11,627 nt of DNA from a virus (IMGVR_UViG_2531839179_000018:1-11627), one strand, 5' to 3'; shown: positions 1 to 11,627, counted from the stretch's first letter. Made by a program: numbers and translations. The notes: generated by a model not told the origin, from the sequence alone.

Positions 1-163
1 CACAACATCCGAGGACAGCATCGTCCGCCAGCCTACAGAAGTCCGGAAAGCCATGGAAGGTCGTTGGGAGGAGGTACGAATTCTATCATGCAAAAAATAC
101 GTAAAATCGATAACGCCTAGAAATCATTCAATACTCGCACTATCGAAAGTTTACCAGCCAACC

Positions 164-192
164 GCGGCACGTTCCTGCATACGACGTGCCGC
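164..192. other. Perfect 9-bp inverted repeat (gcggcacgt / acgtgccgc) with an 11-nt loop, just beyond the stop of the last tail gene
   Basis: Read directly from sequence: 164-172 is the reverse complement of 184-192. No clear U-run follows on either strand, so the terminator role is uncertain. Confidence 0.35.
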
Positions 193-200
193 AGCTTCTG

Positions 201-824
201 TTATTCCACGATAAAATTCCTAACCGAATTCAAATCCTTCAGACTATTCAGCTCTTCCTTCAGCTCCCGCTGACGGCGATAAATCTCGTCATTGCGCTCA
301 ACCTGTGCCTGAGCCATTGCTGCCGCCAGTTCTTCCAGTTCCGGCATCGACAGTTTCACCTGCTGATTATCGGCATCACCCCACGTCATCACGTCCCGTA
401 CAATGTCGGATTTCGCAGCCATTACCACCGGATAAAGGCGGCCCAGTGAGTTGGGGCCAGCATTCCAGATACGACCGTTCCATTCAAACGTGAACGGCTT
501 CGCCTCCTGTTCTGTGCGCCATGCTTCAATTCCCTGACGTCTGGCCTCTCTGGCCGCTTCCAGCATTTCTGGTGTCACAGTGAATGGGGCTATCTCACCC
601 CATTTGCCGCTTTGCAGTTCCTGCCAGATTTGCTGACCCGTCGAAGCGACATCATCAGCGGTGGCTGTGTAGGGGACTGCCTGGTCCCTGTCGTCAAAAA
701 AAACGTCACAGTCTACTGCGCCACTTTCGGTATAACGGGGATTAATGATTTTTTTAATTTCCACGGTGCATTCCTCACGATGTGCGAATAAAAAGCCCGG
801 GCATTGCGCCAGAGACATGTGCAT
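201..824 (-). CDS. Tail-fibre-associated protein, putative fibre assembly chaperone (weak call)
   Basis: 207-aa ORF directly downstream of the Stf-like fibre gene, the position usually held by a Tfa/chaperone. No motif I can name with certainty. It overlaps the fibre gene by 50 nt; a GTG at 762-764 just after the fibre stop is a plausible true start. Confidence 0.45.
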   Translation of the reverse strand: MHMSLAQCPGFLFAHREECTVEIKKIINPRYTESGAVDCDVFFDDRDQAVPYTATADDVASTGQQIWQELQSGKWGEIAPFTVTPEMLEAAREARRQGIEAWRTEQEAKPFTFEWNGRIWNAGPNSLGRLYPVVMAAKSDIVRDVMTWGDADNQQVKLSMPELEELAAAMAQAQVERNDEIYRRQRELKEELNSLKDLNSVRNFIVE

Positions 825-2043
825 CCGGCACCCCGGACAGGGCGCAATATGACCCCGGTAATGAATGCTCTGAACATCCCGTAATGAAAAATTGTGGGGA
901 TGCTATATACGTTCCGGTGGGAGTACTGGTCACTGAAATCCCCACCGGTCCCAGTCGTGAGCCTCTGTATGACCGCCCCCTGACAAGTCTGATGACTTTA
1001 TCACCGTCAGCTTCTCCCTGGTACGCAGCAATAATCAGCCCGCCAATGTCAGGGTCTCCCCATCTGTTGCGGACAGAGCTCGCCACGATTCTGTAAATAA
1101 TATCTTCTGTGGTTATATTTATTTTCACCCAGCCAGTCAGTCTGGATATGGGCCAGTAGCAGTAGCGGGTGTGATAAATGGGGCCGTTAATGCCGTAAAA
1201 AGTAAGGGATTTGGCTCTGTACCTCGGTTCTGTTGTCTCAGGGCGTGCATCAGTCCACCGGATGCTGAGCACCCCTTCAAACCGTGTGTCAGGTATGATG
1301 ATGTCGTAGGGGCCAGCAACGGAATATTCACCTGGCAGCGCATTCCTTACCCAGGCCAGGAAATCACTCTTAGTGTCAAAACGGATAACATCTTCAGGCA
1401 GAAAAGCACGCCCAAAGCCGAATGCGCCGGGTATCGCCAGACGGCCTTTTGTCCGGTCGTAAATGTCGCTCTGTGCTTCCATCGTGGCTGCACTTTTCAG
1501 CCCCAGATTATCCCGGGACTTCTGTTGTGCCTTTTCGCCTGCTGCTGCGATTTCAGACAGATGGTTAGCCGTTTTCAGAGTGCCGGTCAGCGCAGCATCA
1601 ATGTCATTTTTGGCCTGTTCTGCTGCGCGGGCATAACCTGCGGCTGCCGCCACATCCTGCGCCGTCTGCTGTGCGTTTCCGGCTGCGGCCCCGGCGCTCT
1701 GCTGCGCCTGCGCCACCATTTCCTCAAAGCGTTTGACGACATCCGGTTTCAGGTCGCCCTCATCAGGAGCAATCAGAAAGTCATTCAGCGTGCCGGGCTT
1801 TGAGTCCTCATATACAGCAATGTCGCCAACGTTGTACTCGTTGCGCCAGTCCTGTTTCAGATACACACCATATTTTCCAGTCCGCGCATGGAAACAGTAT
1901 TCACCATCGTTTCCTGTCATCACATCAGCAACAGTGTGCATAACCACTTCCGGGGTGTTTACCCGGGATTTCAGAATAATATGGTATCCGGACATGGGGA
2001 TACCTGCGCCATCAGTCAGCGCACCTGATATCACTACAGACAT
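775..2043 (-). CDS. Side tail fibre protein with lambda-Stf-type N-terminal domain
   Basis: 422-aa ORF. The N-terminus (MSVVISGALTDGAGIP...VYEDSKPGTLNDFL) matches the conserved prophage tail-fibre N-terminal domain pattern of lambda Stf, followed by an Ala/Gln-rich coiled-coil-like stretch. The C-terminal ~100 aa are compositionally odd. Confidence 0.7.
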   Translation of the reverse strand: MSVVISGALTDGAGIPMSGYHIILKSRVNTPEVVMHTVADVMTGNDGEYCFHARTGKYGVYLKQDWRNEYNVGDIAVYEDSKPGTLNDFLIAPDEGDLKPDVVKRFEEMVAQAQQSAGAAAGNAQQTAQDVAAAAGYARAAEQAKNDIDAALTGTLKTANHLSEIAAAGEKAQQKSRDNLGLKSAATMEAQSDIYDRTKGRLAIPGAFGFGRAFLPEDVIRFDTKSDFLAWVRNALPGEYSVAGPYDIIIPDTRFEGVLSIRWTDARPETTEPRYRAKSLTFYGINGPIYHTRYCYWPISRLTGWVKINITTEDIIYRIVASSVRNRWGDPDIGGLIIAAYQGEADGDKVIRLVRGRSYRGSRLGPVGISVTSTPTGTYIASPQFFITGCSEHSLPGSYCALSGVPDAHVSGAMPGLFIRTS

Positions 2044-2066
2044 TGTTTTTCTCGCGATAAATTAAA

Positions 2067-2612
2067 TCAGGAAGAACCTTCCGGAGAGACGGGCCATTCA
2101 ATGGCGTTGTATGAGGATTTATCAGTGATGGCGCTGAAATCCATCGCCTGCAGTGATTTCGCGTAAATACGACAGGCTTTCAGCTTTTCTTTATCTTCGT
2201 CGCTGATTAACCCCAGCAGCAGGTCTTCTTCCCATTCCCCTGTCCGGGCACTGACCTGAGCCAGAAGGGCATCACGCTCATCTTCCGCTTTGAGTCTGTA
2301 GTCAAAGACAAATTCATCATTGCGGTAAAACCAGTAACCCGGCGCGGTAATCCGTCGGTTAGCGGTAATATCAGGAACTTCAATAACACTGGCATTGCGT
2401 GGCTCGATGCCTGTCACATCCTTACCGACCCACACCACACGACCGTCTCCGGTGTAAGCTATTTTTATTGTGTCGCTGGCGAAATTCTTCAGCTCTTCAT
2501 ACCAGTTTTTTCCGTCTTCTGAAAAAAGCCAGGTGACCGAATATCGTTTTGTCATCTGATATTGTTCTGCTGTTTTCGGATTACCCGCAGTAATATTTTT
2601 TAAATGCAACAT
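2067..2612 (-). CDS. Tail fibre assembly chaperone (P2 gpG / Mu U family)
   Basis: 181-aa ORF. N-terminus MLHLKNITAGNPKTAEQYQMTK...SEDGKNWYEELKNF closely resembles P2 gpG, and the C-terminus ends in the typical IEWPxxP motif. It starts 2 nt after the fibre stop. Confidence 0.8.
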   Translation of the reverse strand: MLHLKNITAGNPKTAEQYQMTKRYSVTWLFSEDGKNWYEELKNFASDTIKIAYTGDGRVVWVGKDVTGIEPRNASVIEVPDITANRRITAPGYWFYRNDEFVFDYRLKAEDERDALLAQVSARTGEWEEDLLLGLISDEDKEKLKACRIYAKSLQAMDFSAITDKSSYNAIEWPVSPEGSS

Positions 2613-2614
2613 TG

Positions 2615-3817
2615 TTAAATACTCGCTACGTTATACCAGGTGCCATTAATCAGTTTTTGCAGTGGTCGGTAATACACACCGTCAACGTTATCCGCTGAGT
2701 TACGGCCGGTATCCGATATCGCCATCCCTGACAGCCCGTGTCCCGAAGGTGCGCAAAATCTCCACGAAACGGTGTTACTGCCGGGGCTGTAATACATTTC
2801 ATGGCCATACCGTACATCCTGTACCCCCTCTGTTCGATATTTATAGCGGGCATCGAAGTTTCCGTAATTTAACGGAATTACCTGTCCGTTAACAGTGAAC
2901 ACTATGCTGTTATCCGGGTTTCTCTGGCTGAAAAAATGCCAGCCTGAATCATCACCAAGCTCTGCAACAACAGGCCTGGATGGATTACCCCACAAACAAA
3001 ACGCTGCATTTTTCGTGGAGTTGTTGGCGCTGGATAACGTGAATTTTCTGGCAGTTCCGGCCTGAATATTCTTAAAAGCAATAGCCACGCCATTCTGAAA
3101 ACGAAATACATGCTGTCCATTCGCATAAACATCCAGCAGACCATCGCCATTTTGTTTAAACCCGGTATCGTTATCTCCTAAAACGATTGAACTTCCACCT
3201 AACGCATTCGTCGTACCAATGCCAAGGCAACCATTAATGACGGCATTAACCAGAATATTTAGTGTATCCCATTTGAGATTCATCAGGTCTTTAACCCGGC
3301 CGCCAGCGAGGCGGTGTCTCCATTTGAAATATTCATTACCGTTATCCGCCGTTTCAAACCACATGTAGGAATCGGTGTCTGCATCCGAATCATTTTTAAA
3401 TCCAATCTTCGCCCAGTCAGTATTCCGAATCCAGGCGAGGATTGAGTCGTTTTCAAAAGTAAGTCCACCGGACAAGGTATCGCCTTCCTGATGAACATAG
3501 CGTTGATCTGACTGCTCTTTACTGTAAACCTGAAGATTATCCCGTGCCGTCCCTTTATTCTGAAGGTCTGACAGATTGTTCTTCTGCCGCAGGAATATCC
3601 TTTTCGGATCCTCAAGAAGATTTACCCAGCCCGCACTGTCGGAGCCTTCAGGATCGGTCAGGTTATCGTCTGTGGTATTCAGCCAGACCGCTGTTGTTGC
3701 GACTCCGGCGAGAATGGCTCCTTTTGCATATCCACCAATGGCCCCCGCAAAACCGGCATTATACGTGTACAAACCGCCAGCCTGGGCGAACCGTATTGCT
3801 GCGGTAATATCGTACAT
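2615..3817 (-). CDS. Tail fibre protein, major C-terminal portion (P2 gpH / Mu S-like); 3' segment of a gene interrupted at a G10 tract
   Basis: 400-aa ORF containing the conserved fibre C-terminal block ([32 protein letters not shown]...[10 protein letters not shown]). Its frame stays open upstream of the ATG through the homopolymer to a stop at 3872-3874. Confidence 0.8.
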
Positions 3818-3824
3818 CAGACCG

Positions 3825-4016
3825 TTAAAATCCTTGCCGTGTGGCGGTCCCCCCCCCCGCTGAGACCGCTGTCATGGTCGTCGGAGGAAAACCTGAATCA
3901 TACGCAGCATTACCGCTCTCTCTGGTCTGCTGTGTCGCCTTGTCCGGGATACGGTTTTTATCTCCGGTACTCGCAAAGGGGACCGCCAGCTGGCGGGGTT
4001 TATCACTGGCCTTCAT
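3825..4016 (-). CDS. Tail fibre protein, N-terminal segment (5' part of the interrupted fibre gene)
   Basis: 63-aa ORF with a strong Shine-Dalgarno (AAGGAG, 7-nt spacing) before its ATG. It reads through the G10 tract as Gly-Gly-Gly and terminates 8 codons later, in a different frame from the 400-aa ORF. Confidence 0.6.
3849..3858. repeat. Homopolymeric tract, C10 on the plus strand (G10 in the coding sense) inside the tail fibre gene
   Basis: Counted directly from sequence. It lies exactly at the frame change between ORF 3825-4016 and ORF 2615-3817. Confidence 0.95.
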
Positions 4017-4608
4017 TACGGGACTCCTTTAAAACTACTGAAACATAAACACCCGGCGGGGACGGCAGTGCACCCGACGACTGGATAATCGCCAGTTCTG
4101 CCGACGAGAGCGCGGACTCAAAGACGTAACTCATCCTCAGCCCGCCATTATTCAGAACATAAGCCCGGCGTTTTTTTCCGAACATAAACCTCAGCATCCG
4201 GTTAATATCCGGAACGGAACAGTCAGTAATATTCGACATGGCTTTCATCAGGATCAGTCGCCGGTATATGGCATCAGTCAGGTCAACAGTCCGGGTAACC
4301 GATTTTCCGTTGTAAAACGGTGCCTGATTAAACGGGCGGGAATCATCCATTACCGGGGTGTCCATCCTGGACTCGCTGAAGCCCAGGTAATTAAAATCGT
4401 CCTTTACCGTCAGCCGGCGACTGACACCCACAATCTTTCCCCAGACATCAAGACCATACTTTTCTGCGGTATCGATGTTCCAGATAAGACCATAAAAATC
4501 ACTGATAAAACTGTCGGGGGAAAGCGCTGCGTTAAAGCTGTTAATGAGGGCATTGAGTCGGGAGCTGGCAGCATACTGCGCAAGCACAGTGGCAGCCACA
4601 TTCTGCAC
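4003..4608 (-). CDS. Baseplate/tail protein in the gpI / Mu gp48 position
   Basis: 201-aa ORF between the J-like gene and the fibre gene. The call rests on synteny with P2 (V-W-J-I-H-G) and Mu (gp45-gp48, S, U); I cannot confirm the sequence family by eye. Confidence 0.45.
4024..4028 (-). promoter_or_regulatory. Shine-Dalgarno sequence for the tail fibre gene start at 4016
   Basis: The minus-strand mRNA reads AAAGGAGUCCCGUA-AUG, giving an AGGAG core 7 nt upstream of the ATG. Confidence 0.6.
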
Positions 4609-4609
4609 G

Positions 4610-5392
4610 TTATGCCTCCTGGAGTTTCACACTGATATCCGACACATCCAGAACCGGAATCTCATCTATCCCGAAAGTGACAGCCGTTGTCCATGACGAA
4701 CCGTCACGGCTCACAGTAAGGCCCAGAATATCAATATGTTCCGGATCGGTTTTGTAAATGCCGGCATAGTAGCGCCCGGCAGAGACAACAGAGGCAACTC
4801 TTGCCCGCAGACCACCATCTGTACCATTAAATGCGTCCAGCACGGATTGCTGTACCTGTCGGGTAATATCTGAAGGCAGGTAGTCACTTTTTTTCAGCGT
4901 CACACTGACATGCAGACTGACGGGTTTGAGTGTCTGCCAGCTGATCACGTATTCAGGATACGGCGGATCGTACTCCTTATCTGCAACAGTGAACGTTGTG
5001 TTGCCATTCATATCAATACCCGGCGGAGCCTTACGCCAGATGGCCGCCGCGATATCTGCCGGGCTGCCGCCGTACACGCCAACATAAAGCGAACCGGGTG
5101 TTAATGGATACTGACTGACTCCGGCTTTTTGTTCTGTTTTTTTCGGATTATGGGTGACGTAAACATCCACCACGTTTTCTACCGTGGAGAGTATTTCACC
5201 CCGGATGGCTTCCAGAATATTCCGGGCATTACGGGCAACTGAATTACGTCGGCGGTTTTCAAAGTCCGCACGGGTTTCCTCATCGCTGCCCGGCACACCG
5301 GCACGGGCGTTAGTGACACCTGACCAGCCAGGTATTGCCTTATAAATTTTATTCAGCGTCCCCACAGGACAGCCGACGGGGCCGGTGGACAA
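4610..5392 (-). CDS. Baseplate J-like protein, C-terminal portion (3' segment of an apparently frameshifted gene)
   Basis: 260-aa ORF that begins at TTG with no Shine-Dalgarno. Its frame is open a further ~20 codons upstream and overlaps the end of ORF 5395-5847; the two ORFs together (~410 aa) match baseplate-J size and position. Confidence 0.6.
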   Translation of the reverse strand: MSTGPVGCPVGTLNKIYKAIPGWSGVTNARAGVPGSDEETRADFENRRRNSVARNARNILEAIRGEILSTVENVVDVYVTHNPKKTEQKAGVSQYPLTPGSLYVGVYGGSPADIAAAIWRKAPPGIDMNGNTTFTVADKEYDPPYPEYVISWQTLKPVSLHVSVTLKKSDYLPSDITRQVQQSVLDAFNGTDGGLRARVASVVSAGRYYAGIYKTDPEHIDILGLTVSRDGSSWTTAVTFGIDEIPVLDVSDISVKLQEA

Positions 5393-5394
5393 AT

Positions 5395-5847
5395 TCAGAA
5401 ATACCGCATCAACCTGCCCTGATGCGCCGATAGTGACGTCTGACTGACATACTTATAACCGGCCTCATCCTGCGCCATACTGCTCGCCGGGATCAGCGTG
5501 CCAACCAGCCCGGTACAGGTCGCTGTTACTGTCGTACCTGTGGCCCCACGGCGCTCCAGGAAATAAATCCTGCCTATTGCATCCTGAAAGCGACCACTGA
5601 AAAAGTCAGGGTTGATCTGGTTAACGATATACAGCAACTGATCGTTTTTATCCGCAATAATGGCGCTTTCGCTGGATGCAAGTTGTCCCTGCGGACTGCT
5701 CAGACTGGTACTCATGGCCCCGCCCAGCGCCGCCGAAAAATCAGCAAGCCTGCCGCTCAGAATATCCGCTTCATCCGGCACATTCAGCCCGCTATCCGAA
5801 ATCTGTACAGCGGGCACTGCGGTAGAAAAAGATTTATTTTCACTCAT
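5395..5847 (-). CDS. Baseplate J-like protein, N-terminal portion (5' segment of an apparently frameshifted gene)
   Basis: 150-aa ORF whose start overlaps the upstream gene by 4 nt. It stops at TGA (5395-5397), 2 nt before the downstream ORF's first codon, which is in another frame. Confidence 0.6.
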   Translation of the reverse strand: MSENKSFSTAVPAVQISDSGLNVPDEADILSGRLADFSAALGGAMSTSLSSPQGQLASSESAIIADKNDQLLYIVNQINPDFFSGRFQDAIGRIYFLERRGATGTTVTATCTGLVGTLIPASSMAQDEAGYKYVSQTSLSAHQGRLMRYF

Positions 5848-6200
5848 AGCAGTACCGTAAAAATGTCATTATTGGTATCTGTAATACGCAGCACACCTGT
5901 TACTGTCCGGGTTTGATCAGTTGTGACCTGGCAGACAGCGGCGCTCACGGTCGGCAGTTTAAGTGCTTCCTGTTGCAGAGTGGCATTCACCAGTTGTGTG
6001 CCGGGCCAGTGTCCGAGGATGCGTGGCCAGTAAGGTATGCCAGCCGTTGAGTCGTACCAGCACTCCCCCAGAAAAGTACTGCACGCACACGCCACATCCT
6101 GAGCTACCGCATGGGGATTATCAGTAATGGCAAGATTTCCGGTATCATCAAGCAGGATATCCCATGTCCCGGTGTCAAGAAGAAGTGATCGTGACTGCAT
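5844..6200 (-). CDS. Small baseplate protein in the Mu gp46 / P2 gpW position
   Basis: 118-aa ORF between the spike and J-like genes. The call is by synteny and size only. Confidence 0.45.
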   Translation of the reverse strand: MQSRSLLLDTGTWDILLDDTGNLAITDNPHAVAQDVACACSTFLGECWYDSTAGIPYWPRILGHWPGTQLVNATLQQEALKLPTVSAAVCQVTTDQTRTVTGVLRITDTNNDIFTVLL

Positions 6201-6212
6201 GTTTTCTCCTGT

Positions 6213-6890
6213 TTACCGGGGTCCCTGCGTGGTTGAGCCGCCGGACTCAACGCCGCCGTGAACGTGGTTTCCAAAATCAATACCCCCGATGTTCGAACCG
6301 CCGGAAAGCCTGGACTGCCCGGTAACGTTAAGCCCCTTACTGACGGCGGTATCGCCGTTCAGCGCAATTTGTGGTGAGTTAACGGTGAAGCTTTTCGGCG
6401 CATTAATCACACCCTCAGGCGCGGATATCTCCACTTTCCAGGGAGATACAATCCGTATCTGGTTGTCATCAAATACCACAAACTGGACGGGATCACCGTT
6501 GAGCACGCCACCCAGCCAGATGGCATCAGCATAATTATGGGTACGCTTTGATCCCGGCATCGCAGCCTGACGCGTGGCTTTTACCGCACTGATATCCCGA
6601 TCGCAGATGGCAAGAAAACCGATATCCCCCACATGTGGCGGCATAATCACCGCATTACCGCCCCCCTGTAGTCGCCATACGGGAATGTTATAAATCACCT
6701 CATGTTCAACCGGGGAACCGTCTGCTGCAACGCCCATTACCATCGGTCGGGCCTCAATAAATCCCTCTTCCACGGCTACCACCCGTCCCAGAGTGATAAA
6801 CGCATGACGTCCGAGAAACTGCCGCAGCATAAAGTCCTGTGCATTGATTTCGCTGTTCACGTCTGTCGGGTTACTGAGTGGTTGTGCCAT
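6213..6890 (-). CDS. Baseplate central spike protein (P2 gpV / Mu gp45-like)
   Basis: 225-aa ORF of the right size and position for a spike protein, with a Gly-rich C-terminus carrying an HxH motif (GIDFGNHVHGGVESGG), as seen in spike apex domains. A Met at residue 21 is an alternative start lying after the upstream stop. Confidence 0.65.
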   Translation of the reverse strand: MAQPLSNPTDVNSEINAQDFMLRQFLGRHAFITLGRVVAVEEGFIEARPMVMGVAADGSPVEHEVIYNIPVWRLQGGGNAVIMPPHVGDIGFLAICDRDISAVKATRQAAMPGSKRTHNYADAIWLGGVLNGDPVQFVVFDDNQIRIVSPWKVEISAPEGVINAPKSFTVNSPQIALNGDTAVSKGLNVTGQSRLSGGSNIGGIDFGNHVHGGVESGGSTTQGPR

Positions 6891-7740
6891 TTTCTTCAGC
6901 CCTCATCATGGTACAGTTGGAACTCCACGGACCGCCCACGGTTCGCGAAGTAATGGTGTGTATCACCCCTGTGATCGTATAATCGCCCGTCATATCAGGC
7001 AGTGACGATTCCAGATGCGCTGGCCTGCCAGTAAAGAGATCGGGGCAGAATATCGTGGTGGCGCTGAGTCCGGTCATGGTGTAAACCGGATAGCCAGTCA
7101 GTCCGTGATCCGGCGAAATCAGTACCGGCGGAATATTCCGGTTCTGCCCTTTCGGCCAGATGGTGACTTTCTCCACATTCCCCAGATCAATGTTAATATC
7201 GGCGGCTGAAGCGACATCCAGCATTTGTTGTACAACATTACCGGAAAAATGCGGGTCAGACAGACTGCGGCTGACCCCCTGGTTTTCAAATCCAAGCCCG
7301 ACAGTTGACGCCAGCGCACGGATAATATCTGCAACCGCAACATCGCCCTTTGCGCTGAAATCTGCCGCCGGCTGATTACGCAGATTAAAATGAATCTGTC
7401 CTGTCAGAATGAGCGGAATATCCGGCGCCTGGTTGTAGTCGGCGTATGCATCAGTAATATCACCTTCAAAAATAAGCCGCCCGTCGGCCCACAGCCGCAT
7501 TTTATTTGCGGTACTCTGCTCCTGTCGCCACACACCGCGCCAGCTTAAATTCGTCATATGCGCCGGTGACATTCCCCAGATATACAGCGTGATTTGTGTA
7601 CCAGCCACCCCTCCATATACGGCAATACTGGCAAAACAGCTTGCGTCGGTAATGGTCAGCATATTGCCCTGGCCATTACCAAACGTTCGTCCGTCTGAAA
7701 GAGTGAACTCCACCGTTATTTTACGTTGTCTGTAGCTCAT
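6871..7740 (-). CDS. Tail/baseplate protein, possibly hub-like (Mu gp44 position)
   Basis: 289-aa ORF immediately upstream of the spike gene, with a start that overlaps the stop of the upstream fragment. Function is inferred from position only. Confidence 0.4.
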
Positions 7741-7959
7741 ATCAGTTCCTCAGGTAACAGCCAGTAGAGCCGGTACCGGGATCCGAGCCCCCGCCAGTCA
7801 GGGTCACTATTCCCCTCCGTGTCGGTAAAAAACAGGTCCCCCTGAAACGGCAGGTATCCGTACCGGACAATCCGGTTATTATTCAGACACAGCACGCCAT
7901 ACAGGCACGGTTCACCATTAACAATGATATCGATATACATCCCCGTAGTACGCTGATTC
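7737..7959 (-). pseudogene. 3' remnant (~74 codons) of a phage tail gene truncated by the IS66-family insertion
   Basis: The reading frame is open from the IS66 end at 7960 down to the stop at 7737-7739, and is translationally coupled to the next gene. The 5' part of the gene is replaced by IS sequence. Confidence 0.45.
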
Positions 7960-8897
7960 GTAAGCGCCCCGAGAAGTACGTAGCGTAAGGATTATTTTAC
8001 AGACGAGAAGTTCCAGGGAAGCAGTTCATGCACTTGGTTCGACGGCCAGTCATTGAGCTTCTCGATCACTTCGCGCAACCAGTCCTCCGGCTCCACTTCG
8101 TTCTGTTTGCAGGTGACCAGCAGACTGTAGATGATCGCCGCACTTTCTCCTCCCTTGTCTGAACCGAAAAAGAGATAATTTTTTCTTCCAACCGCCACCG
8201 ATCGTAACGCGTTTTCACCGATGTTGTTGTCTATTTCCACCCAGCCGTCACGACAGAACTCGTTCAGCGCATTCCAGTGATTCAGGATATAGTCGAACGC
8301 CTTCGCCATCTCCGCATGTTTCGACAGCGTTTTCCTCTGCAACTGTATCCAGTCGTACAACGACTGCATCAACTGGACGCTTCTGGCTTTTCTGACTGCA
8401 AGCCGTTCCTCTGCCGGACTGCCACGTATCTCCGCTTCTATATCGTATAACTCTGCTATCCGTCTGAGCGCTTCCTGAGTCATTTCTGTCGGACGGCGCA
8501 CATCCTCGTCATGGATTTTTCGGCGGGCGTGGGCCAGGCACCCGGCTTCCTTCACCCGGCCCGCTTCGTACAGTACGTTATAACCTGCATAGGCATCAGC
8601 CTGCAGTACGCCCTGATACTTTGCCAGGTGGAGCTGCGGATGTTCTCCTTTGCGATCTGCCGAATACGCGAACCAGACGGCTGCCGGCAGGGATGAACCC
8701 GCATTACGATCATCCCTGACGTATACCCACAGACGACCCGTTTTCGTCTTTCCGTTCCCCGGGGCCAGTACTTTCACCGGAGTGTCATCTGCGTGCACCT
8801 TTCCTGCCTCCAGAACATAGTCATTCAGCGCTATATACAGAGGACGGAGTTTGTCTGCCATTTCTGATACCCAGCGCACCATGGTATTACGGCTCAG
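7960..8897 (-). mobile_element. IS66-family insertion sequence, truncated: terminal repeat end plus the 3' part of tnpC
   Basis: The end begins with GTAAGCG at 7960, typical of IS66-family terminal repeats, and carries the tnpC C-terminal ORF. The element is cut at 8897/8898 by the IS3-family end. Confidence 0.7.
7992..8882 (-). pseudogene. IS66-family transposase TnpC, C-terminal fragment (N-terminal ~220 aa missing)
   Basis: 296-aa ORF carrying the C-terminal catalytic region of IS66 TnpC-type transposases (DDTPVKVL...QADAYAGY...HARRK). Full-length TnpC is about 520 aa. Confidence 0.8.
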
Positions 8898-9224
8898 TGA
8901 GGTAGCCTGAGTTTAACGGACACTCCTTCCTGAAATAGAATGGCATCAGAAGGAGCTAATAATGAGCAGAAAAACCCAACGTTACTCTAAAGAGTTCAAA
9001 GCCGAAGCTGTCAGAACGGTTCTTGAAAATCAACTTTCGATCAGTGAAGGCGCTTCCCGATTATCCCTTCCTGAAGGCACTTTAGGACAATGGGTTACCG
9101 CCGCCAGAAAAGGGCTCGGTACTCCTGGTTCCCGCACGGTGGCTGAACTGGAATCTGAAATTCTGCAACTGCGTAAGGCGTTAAATGAAGCTCGCCTTGA
9201 GCGAGATATATTAAAAAAAGCAAC
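8898..9224 (+). mobile_element. IS3-family element (IS600-like), 5' end only: left terminal repeat plus orfA up to the frameshift window
   Basis: The left end TGAGGTAGCCTGAGTTTAACGG resembles the IS911 left end. OrfA begins at 8962 with a Shine-Dalgarno, and the element is cut at 9224 by IS30. Confidence 0.7.
8962..9224 (+). pseudogene. IS3-family OrfA (IS600-like), truncated after ...DILKKAT by IS30
   Basis: Translation MSRKTQRYSKEFKAEAVRTVLENQLSISEGASRLS... has an HTH and leucine-zipper-like OrfA architecture. The six-frame ORF (8962-9330) runs artificially into the IS30 terminal repeat. Confidence 0.75.
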
Positions 9225-10445
9225 TGTAGATTCAATTGGTCAACGCAACAGTTATGTGAAAACATGGGGTTGCGGAGGTTTTTTGAATGAGACGAACATT
9301 TACAGCAGAGGAAAAAGCCTCTGTTTTTGAACTATGGAAGAACGGAACAGGCTTCAGTGAAATAGCGAATATCCTGGGTTCAAAACCCGGAACGATCTTC
9401 ACTATGTTAAGGGATACTGGCGGCATAAAACCCCATGAGCGTAAGCGGGCTGTAGCTCACCTGACACTGTCTGAGCGCGAGGAGATACGAGCTGGTTTGT
9501 CAGCCAAAATGAGCATTCGTGCGATAGCTACTGCGCTGAATCGCAGTCCTTCGACGATCTCACGTGAAGTTCAGCGTAATCGGGGCAGACGCTATTACAA
9601 AGCTGTTGATGCTAATAACCGAGCCAACAGAATGGCGAAAAGGCCAAAACCGTGCTTACTGGATCAAAATTTACCATTGCGAAAGCTTGTTCTGGAAAAG
9701 CTGGAGATGAAATGGTCTCCAGAGCAAATATCAGGATGGTTAAGGCGAACAAAACCACGTCAAAAAACGCTGCGAATATCACCTGAGACAATTTATAAAA
9801 CGCTGTACTTTCGTAGCCGTGAAGCGCTACACCACCTGAATATACAGCATCTGCGACGGTCGCATAGCCTTCGCCATGGCAGGCGTCATACCCGCAAAGG
9901 CGAAAGAGGTACGATTAACATAGTGAACGGAACACCAATTCACGAACGTTCCCGAAATATCGATAACAGACGCTCTCTGGGGCATTGGGAGGGCGATTTA
10001 GTCTCAGGTACAAAAAACTCTCATATAGCCACACTTGTAGACCGAAAATCACGTTATACGATCATCCTTAGACTCAGGGGCAAAGATTCTGTCTCAGTAA
10101 ATCAGGCTCTTACCGACAAATTCCTGAGTTTACCGTCAGAACTCAGAAAATCACTGACATGGGACAGAGGAATGGAACTGGCCAGACATCTAGAATTTAC
10201 TGTCAGCACCGGCGTTAAAGTTTACTTCTGCGATCCTCAGAGTCCTTGGCAGCGGGGAACAAATGAGAACACAAATGGGCTAATTCGGCAGTACTTTCCT
10301 AAAAAGACATGTCTTGCCCAATATACTCAACATGAACTAGATCTGGTTGCTGCTCAGCTAAACAACAGACCGAGAAAGACACTGAAGTTCAAAACACCGA
10401 AAGAGATAATTGAAAGGGGTGTTGCATTGACAGATTGAATCTACA
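9225..10445 (+). mobile_element. IS30, complete (1221 bp) with 26-bp imperfect terminal inverted repeats
   Basis: Left repeat 9225-9250 (tgtagattcaattggtcaacgcaaca) and right repeat 10420-10445 (reverse complement tgtagattcaatctgtcaatgcaaca) match at 23 of 26 positions. Length and single-transposase organisation match IS30. Confidence 0.9.
9287..10438 (+). CDS. insI: IS30 transposase (383 aa), intact
   Basis: Full-length ORF with an N-terminal HTH region and a DDE-type catalytic core; its stop lies inside the right terminal repeat. Confidence 0.9.
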
Positions 10446-10708
10446 GTAGCCTTTTTTAATATTTCATTCTCCATTTCAATGCGTTGTAGCTTTTTCCTCA
10501 GCTTACGTATTTCGATTTGTTCTGGTGTTATCGGAGAGGCTTTTGGTGTTTTGCCCTGACGCTCATCACGCAGTTGTTTGACCCATCTTGTCATTGTGGA
10601 AAGGCCAACATCCATAGCTTTGGCGGCATCTGCCACCGTGTATTTCTGGTCAACAACCAGTTGAGCGGATTCGCGTTTAAACTCTGCGCTAAAATTTCTT
10701 TTTTTCAT
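10446..10708 (-). pseudogene. insN: IS911 OrfA, truncated after ...EILKKAT by IS30
   Basis: Translation [51 protein letters not shown]... is the IS911 OrfA N-terminus as I recall it. The six-frame ORF (10358-10744) is a chimera that adds upstream codons and reads into IS30. Confidence 0.8.
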
Positions 10709-10780
10709 TGGAGCACCTGTGTTGTTCTGAGGTGAGCATATCACCTCTGTTCAGGTGGCCAAATTCAGTGTGCCACTTCA
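10446..10780 (-). mobile_element. IS911 (IS3 family), 5' end only, inverted relative to the IS600-like fragment
   Basis: On the minus strand the element begins TGAAGTGGCACACTGAATTTGGCCACC at 10780 and OrfA starts at 10708. It is cut at 10446 by the IS30 right end. Confidence 0.8.
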
Positions 10781-11627
10781 TATCTTAAACTACCGGAATG
10801 AACTGCTGCATGGAGAAACGCTTTACCTAGATAATCCAAGATCCAACAAAAAAGGAAGAACCGTGCGCACAGTTGATAACTATATCGCCCTGCTCTGTTC
10901 GTTGTTACGTTTTGCGTATCAGTCGGGATTTATATCAACCAAACCATTTGAAGGAGTAAAAAAATTACAGCGAAACAGAATAAAGCCTGACCCGTTATCT
11001 AAAACAGAATTCAATGCATTAATGGAAAGTGAAAAAGGACAGAGCCAAAACTTGTGGAAATTTGCCGTTTACTCCGGGCTTCGTCACGGGGAACTGGCAG
11101 CTCTGGCGTGGGAGGATGTGGATTTCGAGAAGGGAATTGTGAATGTCAGAAGAAACCTGACGATACTTGATATGTTCGGTCCCCCAAAAACAAATGCCGG
11201 GATCCGGACGGTAACATTACTGCAGCCGGCTCTTGAAGCACTGAAGGAGCAATACAAACTGACCGGGCATCATCGCAAAAGCGAAATCACTTTTTATCAT
11301 CGGGAGTACGGCAGAACTGAAAAGCAAAAACTGCATTTTGTTTTCATGCCCAGGGTGTGTAACGAAAAACAGAAACCTTATTACTCGGTAAGCAGTTTGG
11401 GTGCAAGATGGAATGCAGCAGTAAAACGTGCTGGTATTCGCCGCCGTAATCCGTACCATACGCGACATACTTTTGCCTGCTGGCTGTTGACGGCAGGAGC
11501 GAACCCGGCATTTATAGCCAGCCAGATGGGGCATGAAACTGCGCAAATGGTGTATGAAATTTACGGTATGTGGATTGATGACATGAACGACGAACAGATA
11601 GCCATGTTGAATGCGCGGTTATCGTAG
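10781..11627 (+). pseudogene. Tyrosine recombinase (phage integrase), 5'-truncated; C-terminal catalytic domain present
   Basis: C-terminus carries catalytic-domain motifs (HTRHTFA...MGHETAQMVYEIY with the tyrosine nucleophile). The N-terminal domains are absent; sequence upstream of 10781 is the IS911 end, and the ORF's apparent start (GTG at 10755) lies inside it. Confidence 0.8.

Follow-up and report, generated by a model that had tools for sequence, protein, structure and literature searches.

A recombinant reading of an IS30 copy flanked by IS600 and IS911 fragments beside a prophage tail module

Introduction

The insertion sequence (IS) IS30 is described as having a dual target specificity and as generating deletions and inversions that start at one of its terminal inverted repeats (IRs) (PMC9333248). 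The IR-IR junction pathways of this element, acting by hot-spot targeting or by IR-targeting, produce deletions, inversions and exchange of flanks exactly from the IS30 end and without a target-site duplication (PMC9333248), and IS30-family transposases are summarised in PMC9927407 (citing Kiss et al. 2007) as targeting imperfect palindromes that are GC-biased at the centre and AT-rich in their outer parts. Here we analysed the IS30 copy carried by an 11,627-nt stretch of viral DNA (IMGVR_UViG_2531839179_000018:1-11627; this whole stretch is called the window below), in which a complete IS30 lies between the 5' parts of two different IS3-family elements, IS600 and IS911. As in the products of the IR-IR junction pathways, the flanks of this copy change exactly at the IS30 ends and no duplication is present, although those pathways were demonstrated in the laboratory on plasmids and on the K-12 chromosome, whereas the window shows the end product only.

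The closest described arrangement is that of the KpLE2 locus of Escherichia coli K-12, made of an IS911B fragment, IS30D (insI3) and the IS600 fragment insM (NC_000913.3 4507125-4509006), which has the same architecture, the same break points and the same AC...GT flanks without duplication as the window, but different outer neighbours (an ISEc52-like fragment and yjhE' in K-12, an IS66 fragment and intR' in the window). A second relative was reported on the chromosome of E. coli K1G, where an ISEhe3 fragment, IS30 and the 3' part of IS911 follow one another with no direct repeat, an arrangement that the authors called 'interesting' (PMC13463583, 2026) and for which the paper proposes no mechanism. 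Like the window, K1G has IS30 at bp 334 of IS911, a different IS3-family element opposite and no duplication; unlike the window, it has another partner element and has kept the other half of IS911. A preference of IS30 for the frameshift window of IS3-family elements is mentioned only anecdotally in the literature that we searched, which did not include the key primary papers.

Comparison of the window with reference elements, related genomes and sampled IS30 insertions led us to read it as a recombinant IS30 whose flanks derive from two separate hot spots, each occupied by IS30, a reading to which we assign a probability of roughly 0.55.

Results

All coordinates are those of the whole window; its layout was read over positions 8600-11627 and compared with reference copies (Table 1). 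The left arm was identical over 327/327 nt to the full-length IS600 of a Shigella flexneri virulence plasmid (L004, compared loci being designated here by L numbers; PF01527, E = 2.7e-20), and the right arm over 335/335 nt to the full-length IS911 of the Shigella virulence plasmid pWR501 (L005; PF01527, E = 4.6e-14), so that the IS600-like orfA on the left and the IS911 orfA on the right, both proposed in an earlier reading of this sequence (the original prediction), stood at 100% identity each. The OrfA proteins of IS600 and IS911 are ~29-31% identical, and the two arms are therefore parts of different elements. Alignment to the references placed the breaks at exact and homologous positions, nt 327 of IS600 and nt 335 of IS911; both correspond to nt 263 of orfA, the second base of the Thr88 codon (...ILKKAT/, where the slash, here and below, marks the IS30 end). 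A break at the identical codon just past the frameshift heptamers had been predicted and was found, but its distance from the heptamer, previously given as 6 nt, is actually 5 nt (A AAA AAA gca ac/ in IS600; A AAA AAG gct ac/ in IS911). Both IS3-family arms are without orfB and a right end, and the IS600 arm is thus not a functional element.

IS30 itself shows the features of its family, namely a length of about 1221 bp, 26-bp imperfect terminal IRs and a single DDE transposase with an N-terminal helix-turn-helix (HTH) and an rve core. Its left inverted repeat (IRL) is TGTAGATTCAATTGGTCAACGCAACA and its right inverted repeat (IRR) ends in ...GACAGATTGAATCTACA, the two being complementary at 23/26 positions. 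The dinucleotide touching the element is AC at its left end and GT at its right end, two reverse complements and not a direct repeat; the exact IS30 ends confirmed the absence of a target-site duplication that had been noted earlier. Consistently with a change of flanks after insertion, the 2-bp duplication that is missing around the window copy was present in unrearranged relatives (L011, L017, L006, L002 and L062), which suggests that the window IS30 had its flanks exchanged once it was in place.

Two observations that could have overturned the original prediction were not made. The candidate explanation that both orfA fragments belong to one element was ruled out by the ~30% identity of the OrfA proteins and by the 100% identity of each arm to a different reference, and a redefinition of the IS30 ends that would restore a duplication was ruled out by the length of exactly 1221 bp, the canonical IRs and the same ends in every comparator.

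The unrearranged configuration and the reciprocal junction, both named earlier as worth seeking in related genomes, were found. Two sister Shigella chromosomes, L011 (CP026824.1) and L017 (CP027027.1), match window positions 1-10340, including the junction between the IS66 fragment and IS600, and continue after IS30 with ACAGCGTATTTTG..., which is IS600 from nt 326 on; they hold a simple insertion of IS30 into IS600 (IS600::IS30) with an AC duplication at the same locus as the window. The IS30 of these two chromosomes contains a 914-bp insert at nt 1113-1116, with terminal inverted repeats GCTGTGTCCCTTAATTACG... / ...GATTAAGGGACACAGC and a 4-bp CTAG duplication; this insert is absent from the window IS30. 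Insertions into IS911 were found elsewhere in E. coli in both orientations: IS911::IS30 in the window orientation, with a GT duplication, in strain CH4797, and IS911A::IS30A in the opposite orientation in CP4-6 of K-12. The latter occupies the same IS911 position as the window copy (nt 335), but differs from it in that both IS911 halves are kept, AC is duplicated and IS30 is reversed relative to IS911.

These junctions are frequent, the one from IRR to the IS600 3' part being present in 1090 of the 5426 complete E. coli genomes and the one from the IS911 3' part to IRL in 811 of them, on chromosomes and on plasmids. The reciprocal chimera, composed of an IS911-like 3' part (ISEc52-like in ATCC 8739), IS30 and an IS600 3' part with GT...AC flanks, was present in E. 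coli ATCC 8739 and in metagenomes; the reciprocal junction expected for the window genome, written from the IS911 3' end (reverse complement) through IS30 to the IS600 3' end, would have the form ...CAAGAGCGCGGT/TGTAGATT...GAATCTACA/ACAGCGTATTTTG.

We then considered the sites at which IS30 lands, using an exact-match scan for the IS30 left end in species-representative genomes (35 loci, ~25 species) and a search of metagenome contigs for the right end (at least 120 loci). Around 70% of the sampled IS30 ends (150-154/217, among the matches listed) lie directly against an IS3-family orfA, either at ...LKKA/ or where it continues as (T/A/S)A(Y/F/L)(F/L). The sampled ends (loci L025-L184) come from Escherichia, Kluyvera, Serratia, Yersinia, Erwinia, Rahnella, Ferrimonas, Shewanella and metagenomes. 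The IS3-family elements that host them number a dozen or more; among the matches listed, their 5' sides group into at least 5 clusters and their 3' sides into ~10-14. Such a number of host-element clusters argues for many independent events and not for the spread of one nested element.

Base frequencies at these ends gave the half-site T-N-A-A-N-A-A-N-G-C-N-N-N/, seen even in flanks without IS3 homology. A weight matrix was trained only on 34 IS30 half-sites, all of which had 400 nt or more of flanking sequence and showed neither IS3 homology nor an A5RGS motif. With this matrix, IS600 nt 327 ranked first among 1232 positions (14.0 bits; runner-up 7.6) and IS911 nt 335 first among 1218 (17.6 bits; runner-up 6.9), while both window half-sites, at 11.6 bits, exceeded all 17,716 half-sites in window positions 1-8890 (maximum 10.6). 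The match between the two breaks goes far beyond chance. Applied to lambda positions 33200-33520, the matrix placed the best site at 33291; the left part of the published lambda LHS hot spot ends at 33290 (PMC9333248, citing Olasz et al. 1998). Lambda LHS, found by the same matrix, resembles the IS600 and IS911 sites in being near-palindromic, A-rich on the outside and GC at the core, but it lies in a phage gene region and not in an IS element, and it scores 14.9 bits as against 17.6 for the IS911 site.

A GC-rich centre and AT-rich outer parts, the near-palindromic feature of these hot spots, were likewise found in the window flanks. The orfA segment TTA AAA AAG GCN NNN GCN T(A/T)Y TTY, which encodes ...LKKA-x-A-(F/Y/L)(F/L), is itself nearly palindromic and matches the IS30 hot-spot consensus, and this symmetry accounts for insertion in both orientations (13 vs 9 simple insertions). 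IS30 thus has a hot-spot preference for this segment, and IS600 and IS911 share their break codon because IS30 lands there by preference. The comparison between break and target preference rests on the empirical matrix and on the lambda LHS coordinates (PMC9333248); the break agreed with the independently derived matrix, with lambda LHS and with the summary in PMC9927407, as the original prediction had suggested might be checked.

The missing duplication was placed in context by a survey of 60 IS30 copies with both flanks readable, drawn from the matches listed. Simple insertions at IS3-family sites with a 2-bp duplication made up 22 of the 60 copies; a further seven had a duplication with neither flank classed as an IS3-family site, and another seven a duplication with one flank only so classed. 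The remaining 24 copies had no duplication, and they include three head-to-head chimeras like that of the window (the K-12 type, and L138 and L149 with other partner elements) and three tail-to-tail chimeras (among them the ATCC 8739 type and L093). In several copies one flank is that of an IS3 site and the other that of a different site, itself known from a simple insertion (the L028 site in both L159 and L110), and mixed-flank copies such as these are predicted by exchange between resident IS30 copies. Flank exchange among IS30 copies is commonplace, given that 24 of 60 are without a duplication, chimeras and mixed-site copies included.

Variation was also seen in the two nucleotides that touch IS30 at one and the same host half-site (..GGCTTTTTTTAATATGTCCCGT) in metagenome loci, where the spacer is GC, the native sequence, in L105, L112 and L126, AC in L104, L155 and L177, GT in L068 and GCA in L110. 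AC and GT correspond to the duplications at the IS600 and IS911 sites, and the varying 2-bp spacer looks like a carry-over, by way of the IR-IR junction, from the donor site that the copy had left; it would be a 'memory' of the origin of the copy.

Table 1. Features of the window around the IS30 copy, with their positions in the whole 11,627-nt stretch
Feature	Position	Strand	Details
Contractile-tail prophage module	201-7940		Tail fibre, tail fibre assembly, baseplate J, spike, hub; cut off at ~7960
IS66-family transposase (TnpC), 3' fragment	7992-8882	-	Pfam DDE_Tnp_IS66 (E = 3e-82) and IS66_C
IS600 nt 1-327	8898-9224	+	Left inverted repeat, orfA codons 1-87 and 2 nt; HTH_Tnp_1
Chimeric open reading frame (ORF), 122 aa	8962-9330	+	IS600 OrfA residues 1-87 running into the IS30 left end; HTH_Tnp_1
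IS600 slippery run	9213-9219		A AAA AAA; followed by gcaac at 9220-9224
IS30, complete, 1221 bp	9225-10445	+	IRL 9225-9250; IRR 10420-10445
IS30 transposase ORF, 383 aa	9287-10438		Intact; HTH_38 (E = 1.6e-23), rve (E = 4e-14)
ORF of IS911 OrfA	10358-10744	-	OrfA residues 1-87 (HTH region) running into the IS30 end
IS911 nt 1-335	10446-10780	-	Left inverted repeat, orfA codons 1-87 and 2 nt; HTH_Tnp_1
IS911 slippery heptamer	10451-10457	-	A AAA AAG; followed by GCTAC at 10446-10450
Phage-type tyrosine integrase, 3' part	10781-11627	+	Cut by the IS911 end; Pfam Phage_integrase

Outside the two arms, the IS66 fragment lies on the left, where it meets the IS600 left end at 8897/8898, and the integrase fragment lies on the right. 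To the right of this integrase in L018 are ATP_bind_3 (ttcA-like), DbpA and CorA genes, and because ttcA and dbpA homologues adjoin it, the fragment is read as a Rac-type intR. The integrase is cut at 10780/10781 by the IS911 left end, and in L023 (position 27/28) an IS600 left end lies 1 nt away in the same integrase gene; two IS3-family elements have thus entered a near-identical spot. In related genomes, the prophage module runs on through tape-measure and sheath genes and adjoins an ipaH-type effector gene (LRR and NEL domains).

The window is 100% identical to the draft contig AFFZ01000026.1 of assembly GCA_000211935.2. Its whole arrangement was found in none of the 5426 complete E. coli genomes. 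The 122-aa chimeric protein has an exact copy in 14,496 blocks of a public gene collection, and many of the blocks with this IS600-IS30 ORF have a serine-protease autotransporter gene adjacent; a query with the same ORF returned no second assembly with the whole window arrangement among the 10 of 14,496 matching blocks listed.

Discussion

The reading of the window as a recombinant between two occupied hot spots implies a history in three steps. First, the IS30 transposase favours a near-palindromic target with the half-site given above and cuts it with a 2-bp stagger; the orfA frameshift heptamer with the next few codons is the best such target in both IS600 and IS911, where IS30 lands repeatedly and in either orientation. 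Second, IS30 entered the IS600 copy adjoining the IS66 fragment by simple insertion with AC duplication, the state that the sister Shigella chromosomes have retained, and a second IS30 would have entered an IS911 copy residing in intR, again at this codon. Third, the two resident IS30 copies would have swapped flanks, either by RecA-dependent homologous recombination or by IS30 IR-targeting, leaving the order IS600 5' end, AC, IS30, GT, IS911 5' end, and both IS3-family elements would thereby have been permanently inactivated. The window flanks would then be mismatched and without a duplication because they were exchanged after insertion, and the event would have been a large inversion or deletion that brought the prophage tail module next to the intR-ttcA region. 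This is in essence what the original prediction had proposed, namely two independent IS30 insertions at homologous hot spots followed by IS30-IS30 recombination, and it is supported by IS600::IS30 at the locus itself and by IS911::IS30 and the reciprocal chimera elsewhere.

Several points weigh against this history. The only parental state found at the window locus is IS600::IS30, and a query with the 201-aa integrase fragment did not find a simple IS911::IS30 at the intR position of the window genome. The intR-to-IS911 junction occurs in this one draft assembly only, the other samples having an uninterrupted integrase or an IS600 end nearby, and the genomes from which the reciprocal junction is known are others (ATCC 8739, metagenomes). 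Judged from the junction sequence, an exchange between copies, whether by RecA or by transposase, and a one-step attack on an empty hot spot would look the same. Finally, the window is a draft contig, in which a mis-join across a 1.2-kb repeat would be conceivable, although, for the reasons given below, we hold this to be very improbable.

The alternative that survives best, while in our judgement unlikely, is a one-step transposase reaction in which a lone IS600::IS30 forms an active IR-IR junction (dimer or minicircle), one end of which attacks an empty IS911 hot spot on the same chromosome; the outcome would be a deletion or inversion from the exact IS30 end, with neither a second insertion nor homologous recombination being needed. 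Intramolecular, hot-spot-targeted deletions and inversions from one IR edge are documented for IS30 (PMC9333248), and within IS911 the site in question scores higher than any other target. The KpLE2 locus, where four allelic states were seen, is also consistent with such a reaction. Strain 118UI combines IS600::IS30 with an intact IS911 that lies 3.6 kb off, CH4797 has an intact IS600 and IS911::IS30, K-12 has the chimera and has lost the intervening 4.36 kb, and ATCC 8739 has the reciprocal chimera, while no strain with both KpLE2 hot spots occupied by IS30 was seen. Each of the singly occupied states (118UI, CH4797) is thus 3.6 kb from an empty hot spot, and the K-12 chimera amounts to either of them plus the 4.36-kb deletion. 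However, the junction does not set the one-step reaction apart from an exchange between two copies, and in many other chimeras the two flanks stem from sites each of which is known in an occupied state, which fits an exchange between resident copies better.

Two further observations concern the K-12 locus itself. A BCCT transporter gene and a DUF2254 gene fragment were lost with its 4.36-kb deletion. In addition, the K-12 annotation (L003, NC_000913.3 4507125-4509801) treats the IS911B 5' fragment and 'IS911B-1' as parts of one element; 118UI and CH4797 (compared loci L006, L063 and L061) contain a complete IS911 (~99.5% identical to the reference) plus an IS911B-1 fragment (~96%, ISEc52-like), and from this co-occurrence it follows that the two K-12 pieces stem from different elements.

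The likeness to K-12 also raises the question of shared descent, in which the window would derive from a K-12-type chimera (IS30D, KpLE2) with its outer flanks replaced by recombination within the 327-bp IS600 and 335-bp IS911 arms. The identical block IS600(1-327)-IS30-IS911(335-1), with AC...GT, is indeed present in K-12 and in 380 of the 5426 complete E. coli genomes, always bounded exactly by both IS left ends, but we regard this origin as improbable on three counts. The window and K-12 blocks differ at 7 positions in 1883 bp (two in the IS600 arm, one in IS30 and four in the IS911 arm, the last comprising a slippery run of A6 vs A5, 7 nt from the IS30 junction, and three further substitutions); the window arms are 100% identical to Shigella copies of IS600 and IS911; and the simple IS600::IS30 that the sister genomes have at the same locus is not derivable from a chimera. 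Taken together, the seven differences, the other outer neighbours and the parental states in relatives favour separate events, and the window and K-12 chimeras are probably independent in origin.

An assembly artefact, in which a simple IS600::IS30 and a simple IS911::IS30 were misjoined across the 1221-bp repeat, would be in keeping with the draft status of contig AFFZ01000026.1, with the intR-to-IS911 context being present in no other assembly found and with the simple insertion in two complete sister genomes. We nevertheless rate it as very improbable, because chimeras of this kind occur in finished genomes (K-12, ATCC 8739) and are common, and the window IS30, being free of the 914-bp insertion of the sister genomes, represents a different lineage state. 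Transposition of the IS600'-IS30-'IS911 block as a unit, that is as a composite or pseudo-composite transposon using the outward-facing IS600 and IS911 left ends, would explain the precise IS600 IRL and IS911 IRL bounds in two unrelated contexts, but it is hardly credible and was ruled out by the absence of a 3-bp direct repeat (cag at 8895-8897 vs tat at 10781-10783) and by the sister genomes, in which the left junction already belongs to an entire IS600. That the block differs in sequence from its K-12 counterpart also speaks against such a transposition.

The window is thus an ordinary instance of a known arrangement, a nested IS30 in an IS3-family element with flanks later exchanged, as in IS30D of K-12. 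What this locus marks is a rearrangement breakpoint in a genome that, judged by its IS content and its closest relatives, is most likely Shigella, at which a prophage tail module was joined to the intR-ttcA region. The wider pattern is the single-codon precision with which IS30 enters the frameshift window of many IS3-family elements, followed by shuffling of flanks; it makes loci that annotators see as 'partial IS3 transposase, IS30, partial IS3 transposase' interpretable, it predicts the sites of IS30-driven breakpoints in IS-rich genomes such as those of Shigella, and it provides a simple natural model for target-sequence recognition by a DDE transposase. Since an IS30 insertion at this codon splits orfA from orfB, the host IS3-family element is inactivated. 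We tentatively suggest, as a possibility of which we are far from confident, that IS30 is in practice a transposon of transposons whose natural niche is the programmed-frameshift window of IS3-family elements. If true, this would account for the recurrent chimeric IS3-IS30-IS3 junctions in annotations and, if also undescribed, it would be a clean natural case of safe-haven targeting that doubles as inter-element antagonism.

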